NCBI RefSeq assembly: GCF_030013595.1
Contig: NZ_CP122768.1
Direction: 5' to 3' (one strand)
Source: Escherichia coli
GTDB lineage: Bacteria; Pseudomonadota; Gammaproteobacteria; Enterobacterales; Enterobacteriaceae
Length of the DNA stretch: 64,000 bases
The notes beneath the pieces were generated by a model. It searched no databases and was not told where the DNA came from. It worked only from the letters and a program-made list of their open reading frames with translations. The position numbers were made by a program, and so were the translations under genes. This document shows, piece by piece, positions 1-11,541 of the stretch (position 1 is its first letter; each line of letters starts with the position of its first letter).

Positions 1-293
1 TTAACTGGGCTTTTCTCTATCTGCCGTTGGTGTTCATGCCCGAGGCAGATAGCCTCAAGCACACGCAGCAATTTTACTTAACTATTTTTCCGAAAAATTA
101 ATTATTACTAATGCATAGTTTATAAATCACACGATGATATTATAAATCTAGTGTAAGGGAACATTTAAGTTAAGAATCACATTTTACTAGCCAAAAACAT
201 AAAACAGATCTCTTAATAATAAGCAGCTTTTATATAAAAACCACGATGTGTTTTCATAATAATATGCAGTACCAGCTACTCAGCAATATGAGG

Positions 294-812
294 TTATTCA
301 GTCAAGCTTTTGCGCCCGTACGCACTTCTCAAACTTGCACATGTTTCTCTAATCCTAACAATTTGCATACAATCAGGTCTTAGAGGTCGGTTGTGAACAT
401 CACTATCATATGTCATGGCTTGGCGTAATTCCTTAAACAATTTTGCCTTATATTTTTCACCACCGGCCCTTTCAATTTCTTTAGCGATAGTAGTTAAACT
501 CTTAACCTCCCTACTCATTTTTGCTAACGCCAGTGTAGGTTCTTTATTATTATCTTCAGCCCAGAACTCTAAGGCAAAATCCTCAAGCAACTCCAGTTTT
601 TGTCTAAACTCACCGATCCATTCATTATGAGCATCTTTAATAGCATCTCCTCTACTTTTTGTGGTTTGGAGATAAGCAATATATGCCGTAATCCCCCATC
701 CAACTAAAACTAAAAACCAAGTTACATACTGATTTTCATCTTTAAACAAAGAAAAAAACTTACACCAAAAGTCTGCACTCCAAGTACAGACCTGGATACT
801 TGAATTAGCCAT
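294..812 (-). CDS. hypothetical single-pass membrane protein; third gene of AT-rich cargo operon
   Basis: 172-aa ORF; hydrophobic stretch VTWFLVLVGWGITAYIAYL near the N-terminus then a charged helical tail; start ATG overlaps the stop of the upstream gene (8-nt overlap); AT-rich. Confidence 0.55.
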   Translation of the reverse strand: MANSSIQVCTWSADFWCKFFSLFKDENQYVTWFLVLVGWGITAYIAYLQTTKSRGDAIKDAHNEWIGEFRQKLELLEDFALEFWAEDNNKEPTLALAKMSREVKSLTTIAKEIERAGGEKYKAKLFKELRQAMTYDSDVHNRPLRPDCMQIVRIRETCASLRSAYGRKSLTE

Positions 813-1119
813 GAGATACCTTTATAGCGTCCTCGATATATTCATTTATCTCGTCAATTAACTCAGGTTCTTCTTCTGAGATAAATTTAATCCCTTTAAC
901 CTTATCAGGACTCACGCCACGCCTAATCAATCCGCCAAAGCACTCCTCCAAGAAAGAAGAACCATACCCCTCCGTTCCATCAAGGTCTATTGTTAGATCT
1001 GGTGAATGTTTAAGCTCTCTTTCTACCCACTCACGAAACTCCTCACCAGAAGCGGGCCCCAATCTTTTAAAACGAGGTCCTGGGCAAGGATAACGACTGG
1101 CTACTTTTATAATTTTCAT
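805..1119 (-). CDS. small STAS-like (DUF4325-type) protein; second gene of cargo operon
   Basis: About 104 aa from the internal Met (MKIIKVAS...), with GAGGTGGA Shine-Dalgarno upstream and 1 nt after the upstream stop; motif LTIDLDGTEGYGSSFLEECFGGL resembles STAS/anti-sigma-antagonist folds; the ORF track gives a longer 805..1158 version. Confidence 0.6.
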   Translation of the reverse strand: MKIIKVASRYPCPGPRFKRLGPASGEEFREWVERELKHSPDLTIDLDGTEGYGSSFLEECFGGLIRRGVSPDKVKGIKFISEEEPELIDEINEYIEDAIKVSHG

Positions 1120-1120
1120 A

Positions 1121-2287
1121 CTACTCAGTTTCCACCTCACAAGGAATTGTCCATTCAATTATAGTACCATTAACAGAGCTTTTGTAATCTCTAAGCACTT
1201 CGTTAATAATGCCAGTTTTCCCTTTGTAAATATAGCGCCCTTTTGATGAAAAAATCCCCATAAAACCATCACCTATTGAATCGATTACCGATTTGATATC
1301 ATTCAAGCCTTTACCTCGGTTCAGCTCCCCAGTCCTCGTTTCCTGAAGTAACGTGGAAGCCTTTATATAAGTAGAATCCTTTACATTTGCTAATGGAACT
1401 CTAAGTTTTTTGAAGATGTTCATTAGCACACTTACACCTTGTGTTTTAGGCAATGTTGAAGGTATTCCCACTCCTTTATCACATATTACCACTGTAAGAT
1501 TTTTGTCATGTATGCCAGCAAAGGTCCACCACTTAGCTGTTTCGTCATCTTCCGTATGCATTAAATCATCAACATAAGCATGCTCGACAGAATTAGACAT
1601 GGCCTCAGTAAAGCCACGGTATAATTTTTTTGATGATTTTCTTTCTAACTCTTTTTTTATTTCCACCATCATTTCTTTTGCTAAAAGAGGCTCAGAACAA
1701 GAACCTGATGTATATTTCCAAAAAGTCACATCATCATAACTTTCAGTTTCTCTTTTAGGTTTCCTTAATAGATCATAGAAACCGACTTGATTCAAAATGC
1801 TTTCAATTTTCTTGTCTTTCGGATGTGAAAACCCTATGGCATTTACTCCAAATTCACTTTTCTTAATAAGCACATCAACTTCAGCGAGAAAAGATAACAT
1901 AGCAGCTGCACTTATATATTTAGTTGAAGAAAAATCTATATAAACACGATTATTCTTCAACACGCAATCGCGTAAATTATTTAAAAATTTATTCATGATT
2001 TCAAAATCACGATCGTTGTAATAATTAATAGATATCGGAGCAGAAAAAACCACCCTTTTATTACTTGTTGTCAACTTTTTCTTCGAGACTCGTAGCTTAC
2101 GAGTGCGTTTGTAATATTCCAGTTTTCTCTTCGCATTTTCTACTCCTTCCCAATCCGTGCTTTTCAGAGAATTAAATATCCCCCTCTTCAGTTTCGAAAC
2201 TTGCCCGCGATAGTTTAGTTTTTGAACTTTTCTTCTTTTTTGCAGATTCATAAATATTTTCACATTTGATAACATCGCAGATATCAT
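1121..2287 (-). CDS. GHKL/HATPase_c-type ATPase (anti-sigma-factor-kinase-like) with basic N-terminus and a STAS-like middle region; first gene of cargo operon
   Basis: 388-aa ORF; Bergerat-fold motifs read from translation: N-box-like EAMSNSVEHAY, G1-like VVICDKGVGIP, G2-like NRGKGLNDIK, then GT motif; middle region RVYIDFSSTKYISAAAMLSFLAEVDVL resembles STAS; AT-rich. Confidence 0.65.
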   Translation of the reverse strand: MISAMLSNVKIFMNLQKRRKVQKLNYRGQVSKLKRGIFNSLKSTDWEGVENAKRKLEYYKRTRKLRVSKKKLTTSNKRVVFSAPISINYYNDRDFEIMNKFLNNLRDCVLKNNRVYIDFSSTKYISAAAMLSFLAEVDVLIKKSEFGVNAIGFSHPKDKKIESILNQVGFYDLLRKPKRETESYDDVTFWKYTSGSCSEPLLAKEMMVEIKKELERKSSKKLYRGFTEAMSNSVEHAYVDDLMHTEDDETAKWWTFAGIHDKNLTVVICDKGVGIPSTLPKTQGVSVLMNIFKKLRVPLANVKDSTYIKASTLLQETRTGELNRGKGLNDIKSVIDSIGDGFMGIFSSKGRYIYKGKTGIINEVLRDYKSSVNGTIIEWTIPCEVETE

Positions 2288-2657
2288 ATTTCACATGAAA
2301 AATTTTTTGTAGCCCCTCCATCAAAGAAAATCGCTGCCTTTATCAAAAACATTTCGAAATTGTCAGCAACTTAACGTCCCCCCACCCCAACAGTAAAATT
2401 GATCCCACTAGCTCAAGTGAAAGTCACCCCGTAACATCCTGTTGATACCCAGCGCCTGCGCTTTCGCTCTTACAGCATAACAAGAACGATCGATCCCCCA
2501 TATGCTTTCTACCGTCAACGTGCCTACACACTGACCTGAGTGCCATGATTTCCCTCATGCATAACCTGTTCACCGAATATCTCTCGAAAACCATTCTGGT
2601 AAAACGCCAGTACGCGCTGCATAGCTTCGCTCCTCCGACACTCGCGACAGATTATGT

Positions 2658-2999
2658 TCAGACGCCTGTCATAGCGGCGTATTTCTCCGTCTGGTAATGA
2701 ATAAACCAGGTCCGGGTCGCTCTTTTTTTCACTGCTGCTTTCGACATCTTTTTGCGGGCCTTTATCCAGTCCTTACGTGCCTGTTCAGACGGAAATAACC
2801 CGTAGCCGGAGTTGTATAAATCGCCACTGGCAACCAGCTCTCTGGCAAGAACACTCATCAGATACCTTGTCGCACCTGTCTTAGCTTCCAGTTGTCGTAA
2901 CGTCTCGCGCCCACTCTGGTGCACGAGCTCAACAACCTTCCCCTTAATTTTTTCCCGCTCTTCTTGTGTAAATACTTTTGCCATAAGCGCCTCCGGCAA
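2658..2999 (-). CDS. phage hypothetical protein
   Basis: 113-aa ORF directly downstream of and co-directional with the replication-module genes; no recognisable motif. Confidence 0.45.
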   Translation of the reverse strand: MPEALMAKVFTQEEREKIKGKVVELVHQSGRETLRQLEAKTGATRYLMSVLARELVASGDLYNSGYGLFPSEQARKDWIKARKKMSKAAVKKRATRTWFIHYQTEKYAAMTGV

Positions 3000-3770
3000 T
3001 CACTTTTCCGATGCAACATGGCGGGAAGAATCAGTAATCTGTCGTACAATATCCCTGTGCTTGTTCAACTCACGCAGCGCGGCGCAGACACGCTCCCACT
3101 TCTGGGCATGACTTTTCGCCCGGCGCAGTTCGCGGTTTGCCATATGCAGCGATGGTAAAATCAGGCCATCAGCTCGTGTTTCAGTGAACGATGGCAGCGA
3201 CTGCACAATGTCCGCCACAGTTTCTGTTTTAATATCTTCCTGTGTTGCAGCTTCCTGTACTGGTAACGCAACACTTGCTGGCTGAGGAAAGGCTTTACCA
3301 TCAGTTTCCGCTACCAATGCAGCTTTCGGCTCTGCTGGTAAATTATCGCCCGGTATGCAGTAGCGAAATTTACCGTTCTGGTTTACGCGTGCCAGCCGCC
3401 CCGTTGCGGTTACTACCGCCAGCGTGGAAGCAACCTTGCGAGTGCTGACACCGAACTTACCCGCCAGTTCCTCACACGTTTTAGCTCCCTCCTGACCGAT
3501 AAACTCAATCATCATGTCAGCGGTAACTTTTCGTTCGACCTCCCTGGTTAGCACATCCTGTACTTCAGATTGTGCTGGCTGCTCTTCGGCTACCCCTGAT
3601 TCACCTTCGCCAGCCACACGCCAGGTGTATACGCTTTTATCAACGAAGCCAGCCTTTTTCAGTTCCCACAGCTCGTTCAGTACTTCTTCACGACTGATAT
3701 CAAGTCGCGCAGCCAGCTCTACCGACGTGGCTTTTCCCATCGCTTTCAGTGCGTCAAAAACGGTCTCCAT
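3000..3770 (-). CDS. phage DNA-binding protein, winged-helix-like (YdaW-position gene, appears full length)
   Basis: ORF 3000..3821; likely start at internal Met [30 protein letters not shown] (HTH-like); follows the ydaV-like gene. Confidence 0.5.
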
Positions 3771-3792
3771 TAAAATTTCCTCCCGGTAAAAA

Positions 3793-4539
3793 TTACTTCT
3801 CAATACCTGGCTGACCAACATTCGGGCGCCAGCTCTCCCAGTTAAAATTCACCCAGCGCCCGCCGTTCATGGTCATGCGGTCCATAATCCGCTCGCCGAG
3901 CAGCGTTTTCATGGCCTCATAGTTCAGGTTTGTCAGCATTCCCACGCTGCGCATCGACGCTGTCCGGCGATCAACAATCTGGTGCAGTACCACCTGCTCG
4001 TTTTTCGTCTCGCGCTGAATGCCAATTTCATCAAGAACCAGCAGATCCACTTCGCACAGTTCCCGCAAAAATTTTTCGCCTGATTGCCCGTCGTCATAGC
4101 TGGCGTGTAGAGCACTCATAACATCAGCCACGGTAACCACAATCACTGTCTGGCCATCTTTCAGCAGGCGATTCCCGATAGCCGCCGCTAAGTGGTTTTT
4201 CCCGGTACCAGGTTTTCCGCTGAATGCGAAATTTGTGCATCCGGTCATCAGTTCATCGGCGATGGATTTCGCCTGGCTCAGCGCGTATCGCTGGTCGTCA
4301 TTCTGCACCTGGTAATTCGCAAACGAGCACTTGCGGTGCAACGGCTGGATGCCGGAGCGATTCAGAATTTTTTCCACCCGCAACTGACGATTCTGGCGGT
4401 TGATCTCCTCGCAACGCTTCTGGCCTTCTGCAAGTTGCCACTCGCGCCACTCGTCCACTGTTCGGTATGGCGCGGTTACATGCTGCGGAGCCAGCTTACG
4501 GATGCGTTCAAGAACACCGCCTGTCGCAATATTTTTCAT
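3793..4539 (-). CDS. ydaV: Rac prophage DnaC/IstB-like replication ATPase (helicase loader)
   Basis: 248 aa; Walker [16 protein letters not shown] and DnaC-like layout; matches remembered YdaV length. Confidence 0.85.
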
Positions 4540-4545
4540 GCTTCG

Positions 4546-5430
4546 TTACCCCCTGAAGCCTGGTGGGATCGCACTGTCCGGAAACGAGACGGTGTTAACC
4601 TGTCGAAGCAACGTCTCAGGCCGAACGCCTTTCGGCGCGAACAAGCCCTGGTATTCATGGGCAATGCTGTGTCTAATCACCTGCTCAGGGGTAAAACCCT
4701 GCTGGCGGAATTTTTCCAGCTCCCGTATCGCCCCGTTAGCGCCCTGCTCCGTTCGAATCGGTTTTCGCAATGCCTGCCTGAATTGAACCCACTCATGCCA
4801 GAGTGTTTCCGGCAACCACTCAGGCAGAGCAACTGACAACGGGTCGAATTTTTTAGTCGCTCGTTTTTGGTGAGGGAGATTTAGAGGGAGATCAGTATTT
4901 ATATCTTCCTCTTCCTCTTCCTCTTCCTCTTCCTCTTCCTCTGGTAACGCTTTTTGATCCGTTTGTGTAACGCTGGCAGCGTTACCTTTTCGTTTCAGTT
5001 CACGTATTTTTGTTACTCGCTCGTTTGTAACCGCCCGTTTTTTTGAGCTTTTTCCGTTATGACGTTCAAAGTTAGGTAGCGAAAGCCCACCGTCATTTTC
5101 GACCAGCCATCCAACCTGAATTAGCGCATCAGCAAAACCAGCCATAAAAGTGATGCGATCTATTGCACTTTTTGTAACGCTGCGAGCGTTACACTCTACG
5201 TTACCGTCTATCATTTGTTGATCCGCCCATACCCAGAAGCGAATGACTTTCCCTAATGCGGCATCTGGATCAATATTCAGAATCTCAGCAAGCCTGAATA
5301 TTTCCGGCTTATCCGGCGTAATAACCTCGAGCTTTATCCAGTTTGAAGCCATATTGTTTTCACCTTGTAACGCTGTGAGCGTTACATTTAACTGATACCG
5401 AACAAAACAGTCCGGCACGATTAATTTCAA
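4546..5430 (-). CDS. ydaU: Rac prophage replication-initiation-like protein with internal poly-Glu tract
   Basis: 294-aa ORF in YdaU position; contains 12 consecutive Glu encoded by a hexanucleotide repeat. Confidence 0.8.
   Translation of the reverse strand: MKLIVPDCFVRYQLNVTLTALQGENNMASNWIKLEVITPDKPEIFRLAEILNIDPDAALGKVIRFWVWADQQMIDGNVECNARSVTKSAIDRITFMAGFADALIQVGWLVENDGGLSLPNFERHNGKSSKKRAVTNERVTKIRELKRKGNAASVTQTDQKALPEEEEEEEEEEEEDINTDLPLNLPHQKRATKKFDPLSVALPEWLPETLWHEWVQFRQALRKPIRTEQGANGAIRELEKFRQQGFTPEQVIRHSIAHEYQGLFAPKGVRPETLLRQVNTVSFPDSAIPPGFRG
4905..4940. repeat. perfect hexanucleotide tandem repeat (CTTCCT)x6 on + strand, encoding poly-Glu in ydaU-like gene
   Basis: Read directly: cttcct repeated six times. 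Confidence 0.9.
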
Positions 5431-8153: not shown

Positions 8154-8310
8154 CTCCGAATCTGAATGCAAGGCCGCAGCTATTGAGCAAAAAGTAGCTG
8201 GTGAATGTTTCCCTGTTGAGAAATTTATCCGGCCTGTAGATGAAGAAATTCCCGCAGGCCTCACAGGAGAAAATCATGAAAATAAAATGTGGTTACCACC
8301 TTTGCAATAA
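8074..8310 (+). CDS. hypothetical small protein with hydrophobic N-terminus (kilR-position gene, identity not confirmed)
   Basis: 78-aa ORF with GGGAG Shine-Dalgarno; N-terminal MNTLFALVMTVFLTSG is signal-peptide or TM-like. Confidence 0.4.
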   Translation: MNTLFALVMTVFLTSGETQDVVTGIYNSESECKAAAIEQKVAGECFPVEKFIRPVDEEIPAGLTGENHENKMWLPPLQ

Positions 8311-8440
8311 AGACGTTGAAGAAAGCAAAACCATTAAAAGACCACTTCATTTCATGCGTGGAGTTATCCCAACGACGGAAATGAAAAAATATTGTAGTGA
8401 AAATTGTGCCGAAAAAGACCAGATGGCACACGAACTTTAA
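8276..8440 (+). CDS. ydaE: Rac prophage small Cys-rich protein YdaE
   Basis: 54-aa ORF MKIKCGYHLCNKDVEESKTIKRPLHFMRGVIPTTEMKKYCSENCAEKDQMAHEL with AGGAGAAAA Shine-Dalgarno. Confidence 0.7.
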   Translation: MKIKCGYHLCNKDVEESKTIKRPLHFMRGVIPTTEMKKYCSENCAEKDQMAHEL

Positions 8441-8514
8441 TTAACTGACTATTCGAAACTGAATTTATGCCAGAAATGGCAGGGATTCGCTCAACCTTAA
8501 TTAAGGAGAAAAAC

Positions 8515-8790
8515 ATGATTACCAATTATGAAACCACTGTTGTAACTACCGATGACATTGTTCACGAGGTGAATCTGGAAGGAAAGCGCATTGGCTACGT
8601 AATTAAAACAGAAAATAAAGAAACCCCATTCACTGTGGTTGATATCGATGGTCCATCAGGCAACGTAAAAACACTTGATGAAGGTGTCACAAAAATGAGC
8701 CTGGTTCACATCGGAAAGAATCTGCCCGCAGAAAAAAAAGCCGGATTTCTGGCAACTCTGATCGCAATGAAATTAAACGGTGAAATCTGA
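8515..8790 (+). CDS. racC: Rac prophage protein RacC
   Basis: 91 aa from MITNYETTVV...; matches remembered RacC. Confidence 0.8.
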   Translation: MITNYETTVVTTDDIVHEVNLEGKRIGYVIKTENKETPFTVVDIDGPSGNVKTLDEGVTKMSLVHIGKNLPAEKKAGFLATLIAMKLNGEI

Positions 8791-8889
8791 AAAAAAGAAA
8801 GCCTGCACTGTGTGCAGGCCTGAGTGAAGAACCTGGGACATTTATTCATCACTCGCAGTAATTTTAATCTGAGTTGAGGTTAAAAAACA

Positions 8890-11541
8890 ATGAGCACAAA
8901 ACCACTCTTCCTTTTACGGAAAGCGAAAAAATCATCCGGTGAGCCTGACGTCGTCCTGTGGGCAAGCGACGATTTTGAATCAACCTGTGCCACTCTGGAC
9001 TACCTGATCGTTAAGTCAGGTAAAAAACTGAGCAACTATTTTAAAGCTATTGCAACTAATTTTCCTGTCGTTAATGACCTGCCCCCTGAAGGTGAGATCG
9101 ATTTTACCTGGAGTGAACGCTATCAACTCAGCAAAGACTCCATGACATGGGAACTAAAACCGGGAGCAGCGCCAGACGACGTTCACCACCAGGATAATGC
9201 TCAAGAAACCAACGAACTGGCGGGAGGCCAGGAAGAAAACGCGCAGGCAGACGCCCACGAGGATTGCCAGGATTGCGAAGTCTCTGTAGCCACTTTGCGG
9301 TTCACACAGCGTCTTCTGCACATTTTTACGTATGCAGCCGGGGATCGGAAATACCTGCATCATGCCACCCGTGAACAACGCAAACACATTACTGCTCTTG
9401 AGATGGATCAGGAAAACAGCTATGTCCAGAATCTGCTGTTGGCCATACGCAGCATGGCAGAACCGACAACTCTGGATAATGCCGCCCTGCTCCGCCTGAC
9501 TGATGCAATTAAGGCAGTGTTCTCTATCACGAAAAAACATCAGCCCTATGAATTTAAGAATTTCATTTCAGCCTGGCTGGATACCGAACACATTGATCGC
9601 GGTCTTCTGACAAAAGAATGGCGAAAAGGAAATCGTGTTTCACGCATCACGCGCACGGCTTCCGGCGCTAATGCTGGCGGCGGAAACCTCACCGATCGCG
9701 GCGAAGGTTTCGTTCACGATCTGACGTCACTGGCGCGCGACGTAGCCACTGGCGTACTGGCTCGTTCAATGGACGTGGACATTTATAACCTTCATCCGGC
9801 ACACGCTAAACGTGTCGAGGAAATTATCGCTGAAAATAAACCACCCTTTTCTGTTTTCCGCGACAAATTCATCACCATGCCTGGTGGGCTGGATTATTCC
9901 CGCGCCATCGTGGTTGCGTCCGTAAAAGAAGCACCAATTGGGATCGAGGTTATCCCCGCACACGTCACCGAATATCTTAACAAAGTACTGACTGAAACTG
10001 ATCATGCCAACCCTGATCCAGAAATCGTGGATATTGCCTGCGGTCGTTCCTCTGCCCCGATGCCGCAGCGTGTAACAGAAGAAGAAAAACAGGATGATGA
10101 AGAAAAACTGCAACCATCTTGCGCAATGGCAGATGAACAGGCAACGGCTGAAACAGTGGAACCGGATGCAACTGAACATCATCAGGACACGCAGTCGCTG
10201 GATGCTCAGTCACAGGTAAATTCTGTTGATGCGAAATATCAGAAACTGCGGGCAGAACTCCATGAAGCCCGGAAAAACATTCCGCCCAAAAATCCTGTCG
10301 ATGCAGACAAATTACTGGCTGCCTCTCGCGGAGAATTTGTTGAAGGGATTAGCGACCCGAATGATCCGAAATGGGTTAAGGGGATCCAGACCCGCGATTC
10401 TGTGTACCAGAACCAGCCAGAAACGGAAAAAACCAGCCCGGATGTGAAACAACCTGAGCCAGTAGTGCAACAGGAACCGGAAATAGTCTGCAATGCCTGC
10501 GGTCAGACTGGCGGGGATAACTGCCCTGACTGTGGTGCAGTGATGGGCGACGCAACATACCAGGAAACATTCGGTGAAGAGAATCAGGTTGAAGCTAAGG
10601 AAAAAGATCCGGAGGAAATGGAAGGCGCTGAACATCCGCACAATGAGAATGCTGGCAGCGATCCGCATCGCGATTGCAGTGATGAAACTGGCGAAGTCGC
10701 AGATCCCGTAATCGTAGAAGACATAGAGCCAGGTATTTATTACGGAATTTCGAATGAGAATTACCACGCGGGTCCCGGTGTCAGTAAGTCTCAGCTCGAT
10801 GACATTGCTGATACTCCGGCACTGTATTTGTGGCGTAAAAATGCCCCCGTGGACACTACAAAGACAAAAACGCTCGATTTAGGAACCGCTTTCCACTGCC
10901 GGGTACTTGAACCGGAAGAATTCAGTAACCGCTTTATCGTAGCACCTGAATTTAACCGCCGTACAAACGCCGGAAAAGAAGAAGAGAAAGCGTTTCTGAT
11001 GGAATGCGCAAGCACAGGAAAAACGGTTATCACTGCGGAAGAAGGCCGGAAAATTGAACTCATGTATCAAAGCGTTATGGCTTTGCCGCTGGGGCAATGG
11101 CTTGTTGAAAGCGCCGGACACGCTGAATCATCAATTTACTGGGAAGATCCGGAAACAGGAATTTTGTGTCGGTGCCGTCCGGACAAAATTATTCCTGAAT
11201 TTCACTGGATCATGGACGTGAAAACCACAGCGGATATTCAACGATTCAAAACGACTTATTACGACTACCGCTATCACGTTCAGGATGCATTCTACAGTGA
11301 CGGTTATGAAGCACAGTTTGGTGTGCAGCCAACTTTCGTTTTTCTGGTTGCCAGCACAACTGTTGAATGCGGACGTTATCCGGTTGAGATTTTCATGATG
11401 GGCGAAGAAGCAAAACTGGCAGGCCAGCAGGAATATCACCGCAATCTGCGGACCCTGGCTGACTGCCTAAATACCGATGAATGGCCAGCTATTAAGACGT
11501 TATCACTGCCCCGCTGGGCTAAGGAGTATGCAAATGACTAA
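8890..11541 (+). CDS. recE: exodeoxyribonuclease VIII (RecE), full length
   Basis: 883-aa ORF; N- and C-terminal regions match remembered K-12 RecE ([22 protein letters not shown]... and ...[13 protein letters not shown]); Cys cluster [16 protein letters not shown]. Confidence 0.9.

Follow-up and report, generated by a model that had tools for sequence, protein, structure and literature searches.

A STAS-GHKL kinase, a DUF4325 STAS protein and a single-pass membrane protein form a candidate phage-defence operon carried by Escherichia coli prophages

What do three tightly packed genes do in a Rac-like prophage of Escherichia coli, and is the membrane protein that they encode the executing component? 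The genes, termed here K, S, and M, lie in a window of 64,000 nucleotides, which is the whole stretch of DNA analysed (Table 1). The sequence-only reading had described them as an AT-rich operon for a GHKL kinase-like protein, a STAS-like protein, and a single-pass membrane protein. It had proposed the logic of a partner-switching module joined to a membrane protein, and could match the trio to no named anti-phage system.

Table 1. Positions of the K-S-M cassette and its features in the window
Feature	Position	Strand	Description
K (gene 1)	1121..2287	-	ORF of 388 aa from ATG at 2287
K N-terminal extension, residues 13-77	2057..2251	-	predicted basic helical hairpin
K STAS domain, residues ~78-190	1718..2056	-	
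K GHKL (Bergerat-fold) kinase domain, residues ~200-384	1136..1690	-	N-box, G1, G2, and GT motifs
S (gene 2)	805..1119	-	ORF of 104 aa
S Ser54-Ser55 codons (tct tct), GSSF motif	955..960	-	candidate phospho-acceptor dyad, start of STAS helix alpha-2
M (gene 3)	294..812	-	ORF of 172 aa
M transmembrane helix, residues 30-52	657..725	-	Kyte-Doolittle 1.73 over residues 30-48
M four-helix-bundle domain, residues 53-165, predicted cytoplasmic	318..656	-	AF2 pLDDT 88.5
AT-rich intergenic region upstream of K	2288..2523	-	between frameshifted DUF977 gene and cassette; promoter presumed

The layout of three co-directional minus-strand genes, separated by a 1-nt gap and an 8-nt overlap, was borne out at both junctions. 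The TAG of K (1123-1121) is followed by one base and then by the ATG of S (1119-1117), as read from the sequence, and the ATG of M (812-810) overlaps the TAA of S (807-805) within the 8 nt ATGGCTAA. The start of K is ambiguous, with one ATG at 2287 (388 aa) and another at 2251 (376 aa). The latter is probably the true start, being favoured by the RefSeq annotation and by most homologues. Because homologues across phyla keep the same order and tight spacing, K, S, and M are considered to be real genes.

The AT-richness first judged by eye is confirmed by measurement, the G+C content being 0.31-0.43 over positions 1..2400 versus 0.50-0.57 over 2400..4800. Gene order also confirms the position assigned to the cassette, after the replication module and at the slot of rzpR/trkG in K-12 Rac. 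Upstream lie ydaU/ydaV-like replication genes, followed by DUF1627 and DUF977 genes, the latter a frameshifted pseudogene; in K-12 Rac, the same slot holds ydaW-rzpR/rzoR-trkG. The cassette is oriented with the early-right lytic operon of the prophage. A consensus promoter scan of positions 1..3000 did not rise above the shuffled expectation and gave no minus-strand site within 2288..2523, and a terminator consensus scan of the same 1..3000 region found none. The E. coli carriers of the cassette are pig ETEC, mouse, and poultry isolates. In this species, K-S-M is a rare prophage cargo operon.

K is composed of three parts. Its C-terminal domain harbors the Bergerat-fold motifs attributed to it earlier: an N-box (E228/N232/H236), a G1 box (D270-x-G272-x-G274), a G2 box (R324-G325-K-G327), and G374-T375. 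E228, N232, H236, D270, G272, G325, and G327 are invariant in all 86 homologues, R324 is kept in 83/86, and G374 and T375 are each kept in 84/86. With its N, G1, G2, and G3 boxes thus maintained across 86 sequences, the kinase looks active. Against Pfam, K yields weak matches only (HATPase_c_2, 0.014; HATPase_c, 0.041). The profile of the K family, however, matches RsbW and SpoIIAB in the PDB, and these serine-kinase anti-sigma factors are also the closest structural neighbours of K. Single-sequence phmmer against the PDB returned nothing; it took family profiles to reach RsbW, SpoIIAB, and VapS.

The middle region of K, likewise proposed to be a STAS domain, aligns with VapK together with the GHKL domain. 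Its position equivalent to the STAS phospho-acceptor is presumably Ala127, by manual register against SpoIIAA. This column is variable, with A in 26, P in 26, T in 14, and S in 10 of the 86 homologues. The N-terminal part is a strongly basic extension that the structure model folds into two helices (2-43 and 46-64, pLDDT 86-96). Residues 13-78 comprise 23 K/R versus 4 D/E and, across the family, the extension has a median length of 60 aa with 32% K/R and 6% D/E. It is specific to the K family: VapK possesses no such extension and aligns only from K residue 79 on. A Pfam scan of the K N-terminus gave no HTH match.

S consists of a single domain. The DUF4325/STAS fold suspected in gene 2 was recovered by Pfam (PF14213, E 9.1e-12, residues 24-84 of the 104-aa protein), and its homologues are likewise annotated PF14213. 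The protein is acidic, with a pI of 5.0. The serine of the GSSF motif, previously pointed out as a candidate phospho-acceptor, gained weight from comparison with proven phospho-sites: Ser54 aligns with S48 of VapS and with S54 of CapS, which lies in a DSSF motif. Ser55 is invariant in 64/64 homologues. Position 54 is Ser in 58/64, the others having P (three), A (two), or T (one), so that neither Ser nor Thr is found in 5/64. S is predicted to be the kinase substrate and an antitoxin-like partner. A CapS-like repressor role was rejected, as S possesses no DNA-binding domain.

M matches its first description, with one hydrophobic transmembrane helix followed by a helical tail, which AF2 models as a bundle. 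The transmembrane segment is part of a long helix (residues 26-85), with further helices at 92-115, 123-134, and 148-164. The positive-inside rule indicates an N-out/C-in topology: the mean K+R count is 3.86 on the C-side versus 0.73 on the N-side, with the excess on the C-side seen in 51/56 members. The bundle would thus be cytoplasmic and open to regulation from the cytoplasm. A periplasmic sensor, also considered for M, was rejected on the same rule. The extracytoplasmic N-terminus is variable, ranging from 0 to 120 aa across the family. M shows little conservation (mean column identity, 15%) and is the fastest-evolving member of the trio.

None of the 56 M members matched a family in a Pfam scan, PIN included, and no signature of a pore, an enzyme, or a toxin is recognisable in M. 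Foldseek against the PDB found generic four-helix bundles only (E>0.2). Against AFDB50, it returned only uncharacterised relatives of M itself, under automatic names such as DUF4760 or HAMP. M founds a family that has no annotation and comprises about 2,950 clusters at the 50% identity level. It has 2,949 representatives (50% identity clusters) at E<=1e-3, all stand-alone proteins of 138-281 aa, which range from Proteobacteria to Planctomycetes. M is the predicted effector of the operon; its toxicity is a guess, and a role as anchor or sensor is equally possible.

The three genes travel together. Whether the trio co-occurs elsewhere had been set beforehand as a test that could refute the earlier reading, and K-S-M was found as a unit in 56/68 genome loci from many phyla. 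An S homologue lies directly downstream of K in 65/68 loci. M homologues, found in the loci by iterative HMM (E<1e-5), directly follow S in 55-56/68 loci and occur nowhere else within those loci. The remaining loci have a small unrecognised TM ORF, or are truncated or degenerate. A PIN gene occupies the third position in 0/68 loci. Starting instead from M, three arbitrary representatives were each preceded by a K-sized and an S-sized gene, and DUF4325 was recorded for the S-sized gene in two of the three, one of them weakly. No fourth gene is conserved: clustering of 1,300 flanking ORFs revealed no non-M family in more than 4/68 loci. A sigma factor or PP2C phosphatase is absent from the operon, and none is conserved in the flanks of the 68 loci. 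K-S-M is a strictly co-inherited unit.

The contexts of this unit are typical of defence cargo. It is present in the isolated temperate Marinobacter phage AS1, beside the Cro/CI (repressor/immunity) region, and in the variable region of P4-like satellites. The satellite context, in Klebsiella/Raoultella, was recognised by Pfam calls only (integrase, AlpA, AntA, and D5_N primase), one variant of the locus also having a putAbiC call. PADLOC gave 0 matches for seven variable-region neighbour proteins from three of these loci. In a Vibrio island, PD-Lambda-2 or IetA lies about 5 kb away, and in three loci the trio is directly downstream of a type I R-M system. Copies also reside on integrative elements adjoining toxin-antitoxin genes (HipA, ParDE), or form a solitary insertion among ordinary housekeeping genes, at several loci. 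In a Vibrio tandem copy, S and M are intact and K is reduced to its GHKL half. Retention of S and M is expected if they are the core pair, and this copy thus hints at a toxin-antitoxin core.

The closest characterised relative is VapKSC. In this system, the ssDNA-activated kinase VapK phosphorylates the STAS antitoxin VapS, which releases the PIN toxin VapC (Chambers et al., EMBO J 2026, PMC13373217). In both VapKSC and CapKS, the kinase phosphorylates the aligned serine (S48 of VapS, S54 of CapS) and the partner is released; furthermore, the VapKSC/CapKS operon protects against phage Bas42 (PMC13373217). With hhalign, K matches VapK at 96.6% (E 6e-10) over 269 columns that span both of its domains, STAS and GHKL. 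VapS, like S, is a STAS protein of the DUF4325 family (Pfam E 2.7e-17), and the two are similar in length at about 100-116 aa. By sequence, their relationship is weak (hhalign E 3e-4), and the S family profile finds VapS (9z7o_A) as its top PDB match at a likewise weak E of 0.037. On these comparisons, K and S are homologues of VapK and VapS. The two systems also share the order of kinase, STAS protein, and third gene, and both occur sporadically and close to other defence genes.

They also differ. The third gene encodes a single-pass membrane four-helix bundle in place of a PIN nuclease, and K carries its basic helical extension of ~60 aa, absent in VapK. Finally, VapK and CapK stack ssDNA against an aromatic residue of the STAS-GHKL groove (F54 and W68, respectively), which is not conserved in the K family, where the aligned position 124 is K in 21, R in 9, F in 7, E in 7, T in 6, Y in 5, and L in 5 of 86 sequences, with other residues in the rest. 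The VapKSC trigger is therefore not simply transferable to K. No membrane-protein version of VapKSC is mentioned in PMC13373217. The earlier statement that the trio matches no named system thus holds for the membrane-protein version only; it does not hold for K and S, given their VapK/VapS and CapK homologues.

The relationship to CapKS, the "controller of adjacent pathways" described in PMC13373217 as well, is less complete. The STAS-GHKL core of K aligns with CapK (hhalign 95%, E 3e-8), and the S-S-F of S has its counterpart in the CapS motif DSSF, the site of phospho-Ser54. S and CapS, however, show no significant similarity (hhalign E 0.14 over 29 columns). Where K has the basic hairpin, CapK carries an HTH at its N-terminus, and CapS combines a STAS domain with a C-terminal wHTH repressor domain that S does not possess. 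Moreover, CapKS lies upstream of an immune operon under its control, whereas only M is conserved downstream of K-S. A literature search on the RefSeq accessions and on anti-phage, anti-sigma, and transmembrane links found no report of the trio. The proposed check against catalogued defence systems gave no hit either: a PADLOC-DB v2.0.0 scan of K, S, and M returned chance-level matches only (E 0.03), and an NCBIfam scan of the three returned nothing above chance.

Our leading reading, held with modest confidence, is that K-S-M is a self-contained toxin/effector module of the VapKSC type, gated by phosphorylation and borne as cargo by the prophage, and that its most likely role is abortive-infection phage defence. 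The events, in the order that we infer, would be as follows. In the resting cell, acidic S would bind the cytoplasmic four-helix bundle of M and keep it inactive, as an antitoxin does. A cue derived from the phage or from damage would switch on the STAS-GHKL serine kinase K, which would then phosphorylate S on the Ser54/Ser55 dyad. Phospho-S would release M. Free M would oligomerise in the inner membrane and compromise it by depolarisation or leak, and phage production would stop. Several observations weigh against this reading: the weak sequence similarity of S to VapS, the single transmembrane helix of M and its lack of a toxin-like signature, the poor conservation of the ssDNA-stacking position, the 5/64 homologues of S with neither Ser nor Thr at position 54, the housekeeping neighbours at several loci, and the orientation of the cassette with the lytic operon. 

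Membrane effectors of abortive infection include lambda RexAB and the TM effectors of CBASS or Pycsar. As in these systems, the trio is borne by prophages or islands, and its presumed executioner is a small protein of the inner membrane; the place of the trio next to the repressor region of phage AS1 resembles that of rexAB in lambda. The searches related it to none of them by sequence or fold, however, and the gating proposed here, by phosphorylation of a STAS partner, differs from gating by a nucleotide signal or by a complex of protein and DNA.

Other roles for the same proteins were weighed. M might be an input or anchor, sensing envelope perturbation (phage DNA entry, holin) and controlling K, while phospho-S, or S released from K, would have its target elsewhere, in an unlinked host or phage component. 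A transmembrane helix joined to a four-helix bundle does resemble sensor modules known from chemoreceptors and histidine kinases (QseE and MCP 4HB in Foldseek). M also evolves fastest of the three, as is common for sensors, and its extracytoplasmic N-terminus is variable. The bundle is predicted to be cytoplasmic, however, not periplasmic, and the matches to known structures are of a generic kind (E>0.2). Such a module would also have no output of its own, with no other effector gene conserved nearby; the third gene of the homologous VapKSC is a toxin, and the decayed Vibrio copy retains S and M, not K and M. This role is unlikely. We give a similarly low probability to a stress-responsive toxin-antitoxin or addiction module that would stabilise its carrier elements or answer DNA damage, with no meaningful part in phage defence. 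Its architecture would be that of a kinase-controlled TA system, in line with the neighbouring HipA and ParDE genes on integrative elements and with the S-M pair kept in Vibrio, and the VapKSC authors remark that stress response and immunity blur into each other (PMC13373217). Against it stand the repeated placement in known defence hotspots, by R-M, PD-Lambda-2, and IetA, the residence of the trio within the immunity region of phage AS1, and the protection that its closest characterised relative affords against a phage.

Two further readings appear more remote. M could be a superinfection-exclusion protein blocking DNA entry or another envelope step, with K and S only tuning it. Sie proteins are often small inner-membrane proteins, as is M (T4 Imm, P22 SieA, HK97 gp15), and the trio is prophage-encoded and found in the lysogeny/immunity region of phage AS1. 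To our knowledge, however, known Sie proteins act alone, and a conserved kinase with its phospho-acceptor partner would be left unexplained. M is also mostly cytoplasmic, and the trio occurs in satellites and as solitary chromosomal insertions as well, making exclusion quite improbable. Least probable of all is a classical SpoIIAB/SpoIIAA-type switch, with K as anti-sigma factor or anti-regulator and S as its antagonist, controlling host or prophage transcription. K is nearest to SpoIIAB and RsbW by structure and sequence, with a GHKL serine-kinase fold and intact ATP-binding boxes, and the STAS domains are RsbV/SpoIIAA-like, with a Ser at the start of helix alpha-2. In contrast to SpoIIAB-SpoIIAA and RsbW-RsbV, K combines its kinase with a STAS domain of its own and with a basic extension, and the third protein is a membrane protein, for which such switches have no counterpart. 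The trio contains no sigma factor, PP2C phosphatase, or DNA-binding domain, nor is one conserved in its neighbourhood, S has no CapS-like wHTH, and the distribution is sporadic and mobile rather than that of a core developmental or stress regulon. Of the partner-switching logic first proposed, the homology to a serine kinase and its STAS partner thus stands; the classical reversible switch, with no conserved sigma factor or PP2C phosphatase, does not.

For the VapKSC-type module favoured above, a broader proposal is put forward more tentatively. K-S-M may be a widespread, undescribed abortive-infection system in which the kinase/STAS switch gates a new family of executioners, M, in response to a cue other than ssDNA, perhaps perceived through the basic hairpin of K. 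The non-conserved ssDNA-contact residue and the additional basic domain make the family a test case for the diversification of trigger specificity within one sensor family. The trio also provides, within E. coli, a compact candidate system of three genes that can be cloned directly and for which the point mutants to make are obvious. If the proposal is true, M, a large protein family devoid of any annotation, would be given a role, and the GHKL-kinase/STAS switch of CapKS and VapKSC would be a general, exchangeable control module that gates a membrane effector, a nuclease, or a repressor.

The cassette at 294..2287 consists of three minus-strand ORFs, K, S and M, found where the sequence-only reading had placed them (see table). 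Read from the sequence, the TAG of K (1123-1121) is separated by a single base from the ATG of S (1119-1117), and the ATG of M (812-810) lies within the end of S, whose TAA occupies 807-805, which bears out the 1-nt gap and the 8-nt overlap reported earlier. The AT-richness noticed by eye is also real: G+C is 0.31-0.43 in the cassette, whereas the replication genes on its right have 0.50-0.57. The start of K is uncertain, as two in-frame ATGs occur, at 2287 and 2251, both devoid of a strong Shine-Dalgarno sequence. The methionine encoded at 2251 is the start in RefSeq and in nearly all homologues, yielding a 376-residue protein, and this is the start we favour; residue numbers below refer to the 388-residue ORF.

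Genes of the cassette (window coordinates) and predicted domains of K (residue numbers)
Feature	Position	Strand	Place in K	Basis
gene 1 (K), 388 aa	1121..2287	-		ORF
gene 2 (S), 104 aa	805..1119	-		ORF
gene 3 (M), 172 aa	294..812	-		ORF
K helical hairpin	helices 2-43, 46-64		N-terminal	predicted
K STAS domain	about 78-190		middle	predicted
K serine-kinase-type GHKL domain	about 200-384		C-terminal	predicted

The predicted layout of K rests on its conserved boxes, on profile matches to RsbW (6e-4) and SpoIIAB (3e-3) in the PDB, and on an AlphaFold2 model (pLDDT 92, pTM 0.88); Pfam returns marginal matches to HATPase_c_2 and HATPase_c. The family was first found in Gammaproteobacteria (88 clusters). 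Across 86 aligned sequences, E228, N232, H236, D270, G272, G325 and G327 are invariant, and R324 (83/86), G374 and T375 (84/86 each) nearly so; together they form the N, G1, G2 and G3 boxes of the Bergerat fold. The hairpin is strongly basic (23 K/R vs 4 D/E in E. coli; family median 60 residues, 32% K/R), and the whole protein has a pI of 9.6. In K's own STAS domain, Ala127 presumably occupies the canonical phospho-acceptor position, by manual register against SpoIIAA. This column varies in the same alignment (Ala 26, Pro 26, Thr 14, Ser 10), and on that register the fused STAS of E. coli K looks regulatory rather than a substrate.

S belongs to the Pfam DUF4325 "STAS-like domain" family (E 9e-12) and is acidic (pI 5.0). 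R16, G25, F28, S55 and E59 are invariant among 64 homologues, residue 54 is a serine in 58 of them, and the G-S54-S55-F motif lies at the site of the phosphorylated serine of STAS proteins. Against PHROGs, the match of S is confined to the C-terminal end of phrog_5816 (96 positions, 344-439 of 441), which means that a DUF4325 domain exists in some phages joined to an N-terminal region of ~340 residues, in what may be a kinase-STAS fusion.

M matches nothing in Pfam, NCBIfam or PADLOC, and Pfam likewise recognises none of 56 family members. Its AlphaFold2 model (pLDDT 88.5) is all-helical: a long helix (26-85) holding the hydrophobic segment 30-52 packs with three further helices as a four-helix bundle. 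The N-terminus is predicted to lie outside and the bundle in the cytoplasm by the positive-inside rule, because 51 of 56 members have more positive charge on the C-terminal side (over 15 residues, the family averages 3.86 K+R following the hydrophobic helix vs 0.73 preceding it). The earlier structural reading of the three proteins, with GHKL boxes, a DUF4325 STAS and a single hydrophobic helix, is correct. Structure searches with M return generic four-helix bundles only (PDB, E>0.2), besides its own uncharacterised relatives. The family is weakly conserved (15% mean column identity), and its alignment shows no group of polar residues reminiscent of a catalytic site; conservation is highest at two adjacent aromatics, F83-W84 in E. 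coli and Y-W across the family, and at a turn reading T-G-x-x-F-E. When a profile was run against 1.84 billion representatives, 2,949 proteins matched at E<=1e-3, of which 1,330 reached E<=1e-10; every one is small (138-281 residues) and stand-alone.

The K, S and M genes are one inherited unit. Scanning the K alignment against one genome per species yielded 68 loci spanning Alpha-, Beta- and Gammaproteobacteria, Desulfobacterota, Campylobacterota, Verrucomicrobiota, Planctomycetota and Poribacteria. In 65 of them, K is directly followed by an S homologue, the remaining three being cut by contig ends or degenerate, and nearly all loci show a small ORF after S, at a spacing of -74 to +47 nt. 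Iterating an HMM from the E. coli M recovers 55 of these ORFs, with no other hit in the loci at E<1e-5. With the final HMMs, the trio, whose failure to recur elsewhere would have refuted the earlier reading, is complete in 56 loci; nine are K-S, where the small ORF is unrecognised or the contig or S gene truncated, and three have K alone, at a contig end or decayed. Conversely, three arbitrary M representatives each directly follow a gene of ~310-400 codons and one of 120-145 codons, for which DUF4325 is recorded in two of the three, once weakly. Among 1,300 clustered flanking ORFs, no family occurs in more than 4 of the 68 loci (the commonest are recombinases), and hence neither a fourth component nor a sigma factor or phosphatase is conserved.

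Seven of the unrecognised third ORFs were examined, and all have TM segments. The M HMM fails to recognise the third ORF after K and S in loci L047, L058, L064, L065, L066, L067 and L069, from Acinetobacter, Moraxellaceae, Phenylobacterium and Campylobacterota. In the six other than L066, this ORF is 130-208 residues long with one or two TM segments, and that of L064 clusters with ORFs of two other loci. These ORFs may represent a second effector family or a very divergent M.

Two kinase-STAS systems offer the closest comparison (Chambers et al., EMBO J 2026, PMC13373217). CapK is an HTH-STAS-GHKL kinase that, activated by ssDNA, phosphorylates Ser54 of the STAS-wHTH repressor CapS. VapKSC is composed of VapK (STAS-GHKL), the STAS antitoxin VapS, phosphorylated on Ser48, and the PIN toxin VapC, and gives E. 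coli about 100-fold protection against phage Bas42 (PMC13373217). A PIN group "transcriptionally coupled to DUF4325" had appeared in a 2017 survey. Using sequences from the supplementary files of PMC13373217, the K profile matches both domains of VapK (96.6%, E 6e-10, 269 columns) and the STAS-GHKL core of CapK (95%, E 3e-8). VapS is itself a DUF4325 protein (2.7e-17) and the top PDB match of the S profile (9z7o_A, E 0.037; E 3e-4 by hhalign); S54 aligns with VapS S48, and the S-S-F motif with the CapS DSSF containing Ser54. These alignments indicate that K and S share ancestry with VapK and VapS, which makes it most likely, by analogy, that the cassette works as VapKSC does.

There are also differences. 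The third gene encodes a PIN nuclease in VapKSC, whereas here it encodes a membrane four-helix-bundle protein; without that defining PIN toxin, the cassette does not belong to VapKSC. VapK is devoid of the basic helical N-terminal extension of K, where CapK has its HTH. The ssDNA-stacking aromatic of CapK (W68) and VapK (F54) corresponds to K position 124, which is variable (Lys 21, Arg 9, Phe 7, Glu 7, Thr 6, Tyr 5, Leu 5), so that the trigger may differ. CapS carries a C-terminal wHTH, whereas S is without any DNA-binding domain, and a CapS-like repressor role is therefore excluded. A membrane-protein version is not mentioned in PMC13373217, and a literature search found no further paper joining GHKL, STAS and phage.

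The trio resides in diverse settings. In E. coli, it occupies the cargo slot of a Rac-like prophage; in Marinobacter phage AS1, an isolated temperate phage, it corresponds to AS1_41/40/39, adjoining the Cro/CI region in the same direction as the gene beside cro; in Morganella, it lies at a prophage edge. The Klebsiella/Raoultella trio is found in a P4-like satellite (integrase, AlpA, AntA, D5_N primase), within a variable region that holds putAbiC in other variants. In Vibrio fluvialis, the trio belongs to an integrative island; ~5 kb away, some strains have PD-Lambda-2 (E 1e-178 and 1e-154) and others IetA (E 2e-72). In three Idiomarina-group loci (L038, L044, L049), it directly follows a complete type I R-M system (HsdM, HsdS, HsdR), echoing capK-capS, reported at a similar placement in about 20% of cases. 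It is found near an integrase and ParDE in Paraburkholderia and as a bare three-gene insertion amid housekeeping genes in Aeromonas and Serratia. This distribution fits a mobile conflict module, short of proof of defence.

The cassette DNA is identical to that of a lambdoid, Rac-like prophage found in E. coli strains that include pig ETEC, and is present in 23 of 5,426 complete E. coli genomes, always as a single chromosomal copy at least 99% identical. The Rac slot named in the earlier reading is the right one: K-12 Rac carries ydaW, rzpR/rzoR and trkG at the matching position after ydaV. To the right lie a DUF977 (ydaW-like) gene (2524-2999, minus strand), called frameshifted by RefSeq and whose ORF 2658..2999 ends prematurely, a DUF1627 gene and replication genes, among which a ydaU-like (DUF1376-type) protein (4546-5430, minus strand) displays an unbroken run of 13 glutamates. 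To the left lie hokD, immediately adjacent, nin-region genes, an ADP-ribosyltransferase/SubB toxin pair (a scabin-related enzyme adjoining a subtilase AB5 B-subunit gene), lysis genes and terminase. A gene assigned by annotation to the anti-CBASS Acb1 family is also found in this prophage, parts of which (1125-2561 and 8195-9413 of locus L001) lie to the left of where the window begins.

The most economical model, by analogy, is that of an M restrained by S and freed when K phosphorylates S. By homology, S would keep M's cytoplasmic bundle inactive until some cue activated K, which would phosphorylate S at the Ser54/55 dyad; released M would then damage the inner membrane, aborting the infection. 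We infer each step, from kinase activity on S, S-M binding and M toxicity to the trigger and phage protection. If S and M form a toxin-antitoxin-like core, copies with an intact S and M and half a K are expected. Such a copy directly follows a complete K-S-M in Vibrio fluvialis (locus L075, 11102-12455; also L076, L077 and L078): its first gene encodes 193 residues covering the GHKL half of K only (HMM 171-360), and its S and M are intact. This copy, a duplicate in decay or else a natural variant reduced to the kinase domain, lends the core circumstantial support.

In the main rival, M is an anchor or sensor instead of the executioner. The trio might also be a pure addiction or stress module, or serve superinfection exclusion, while a classical sigma-factor switch is the least supported reading. 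The cassette is a clean, testable candidate defence system. The K-S-M concept was foreshadowed by the modularity argument of PMC13373217, and M is predicted to represent a large, wholly unannotated effector family.
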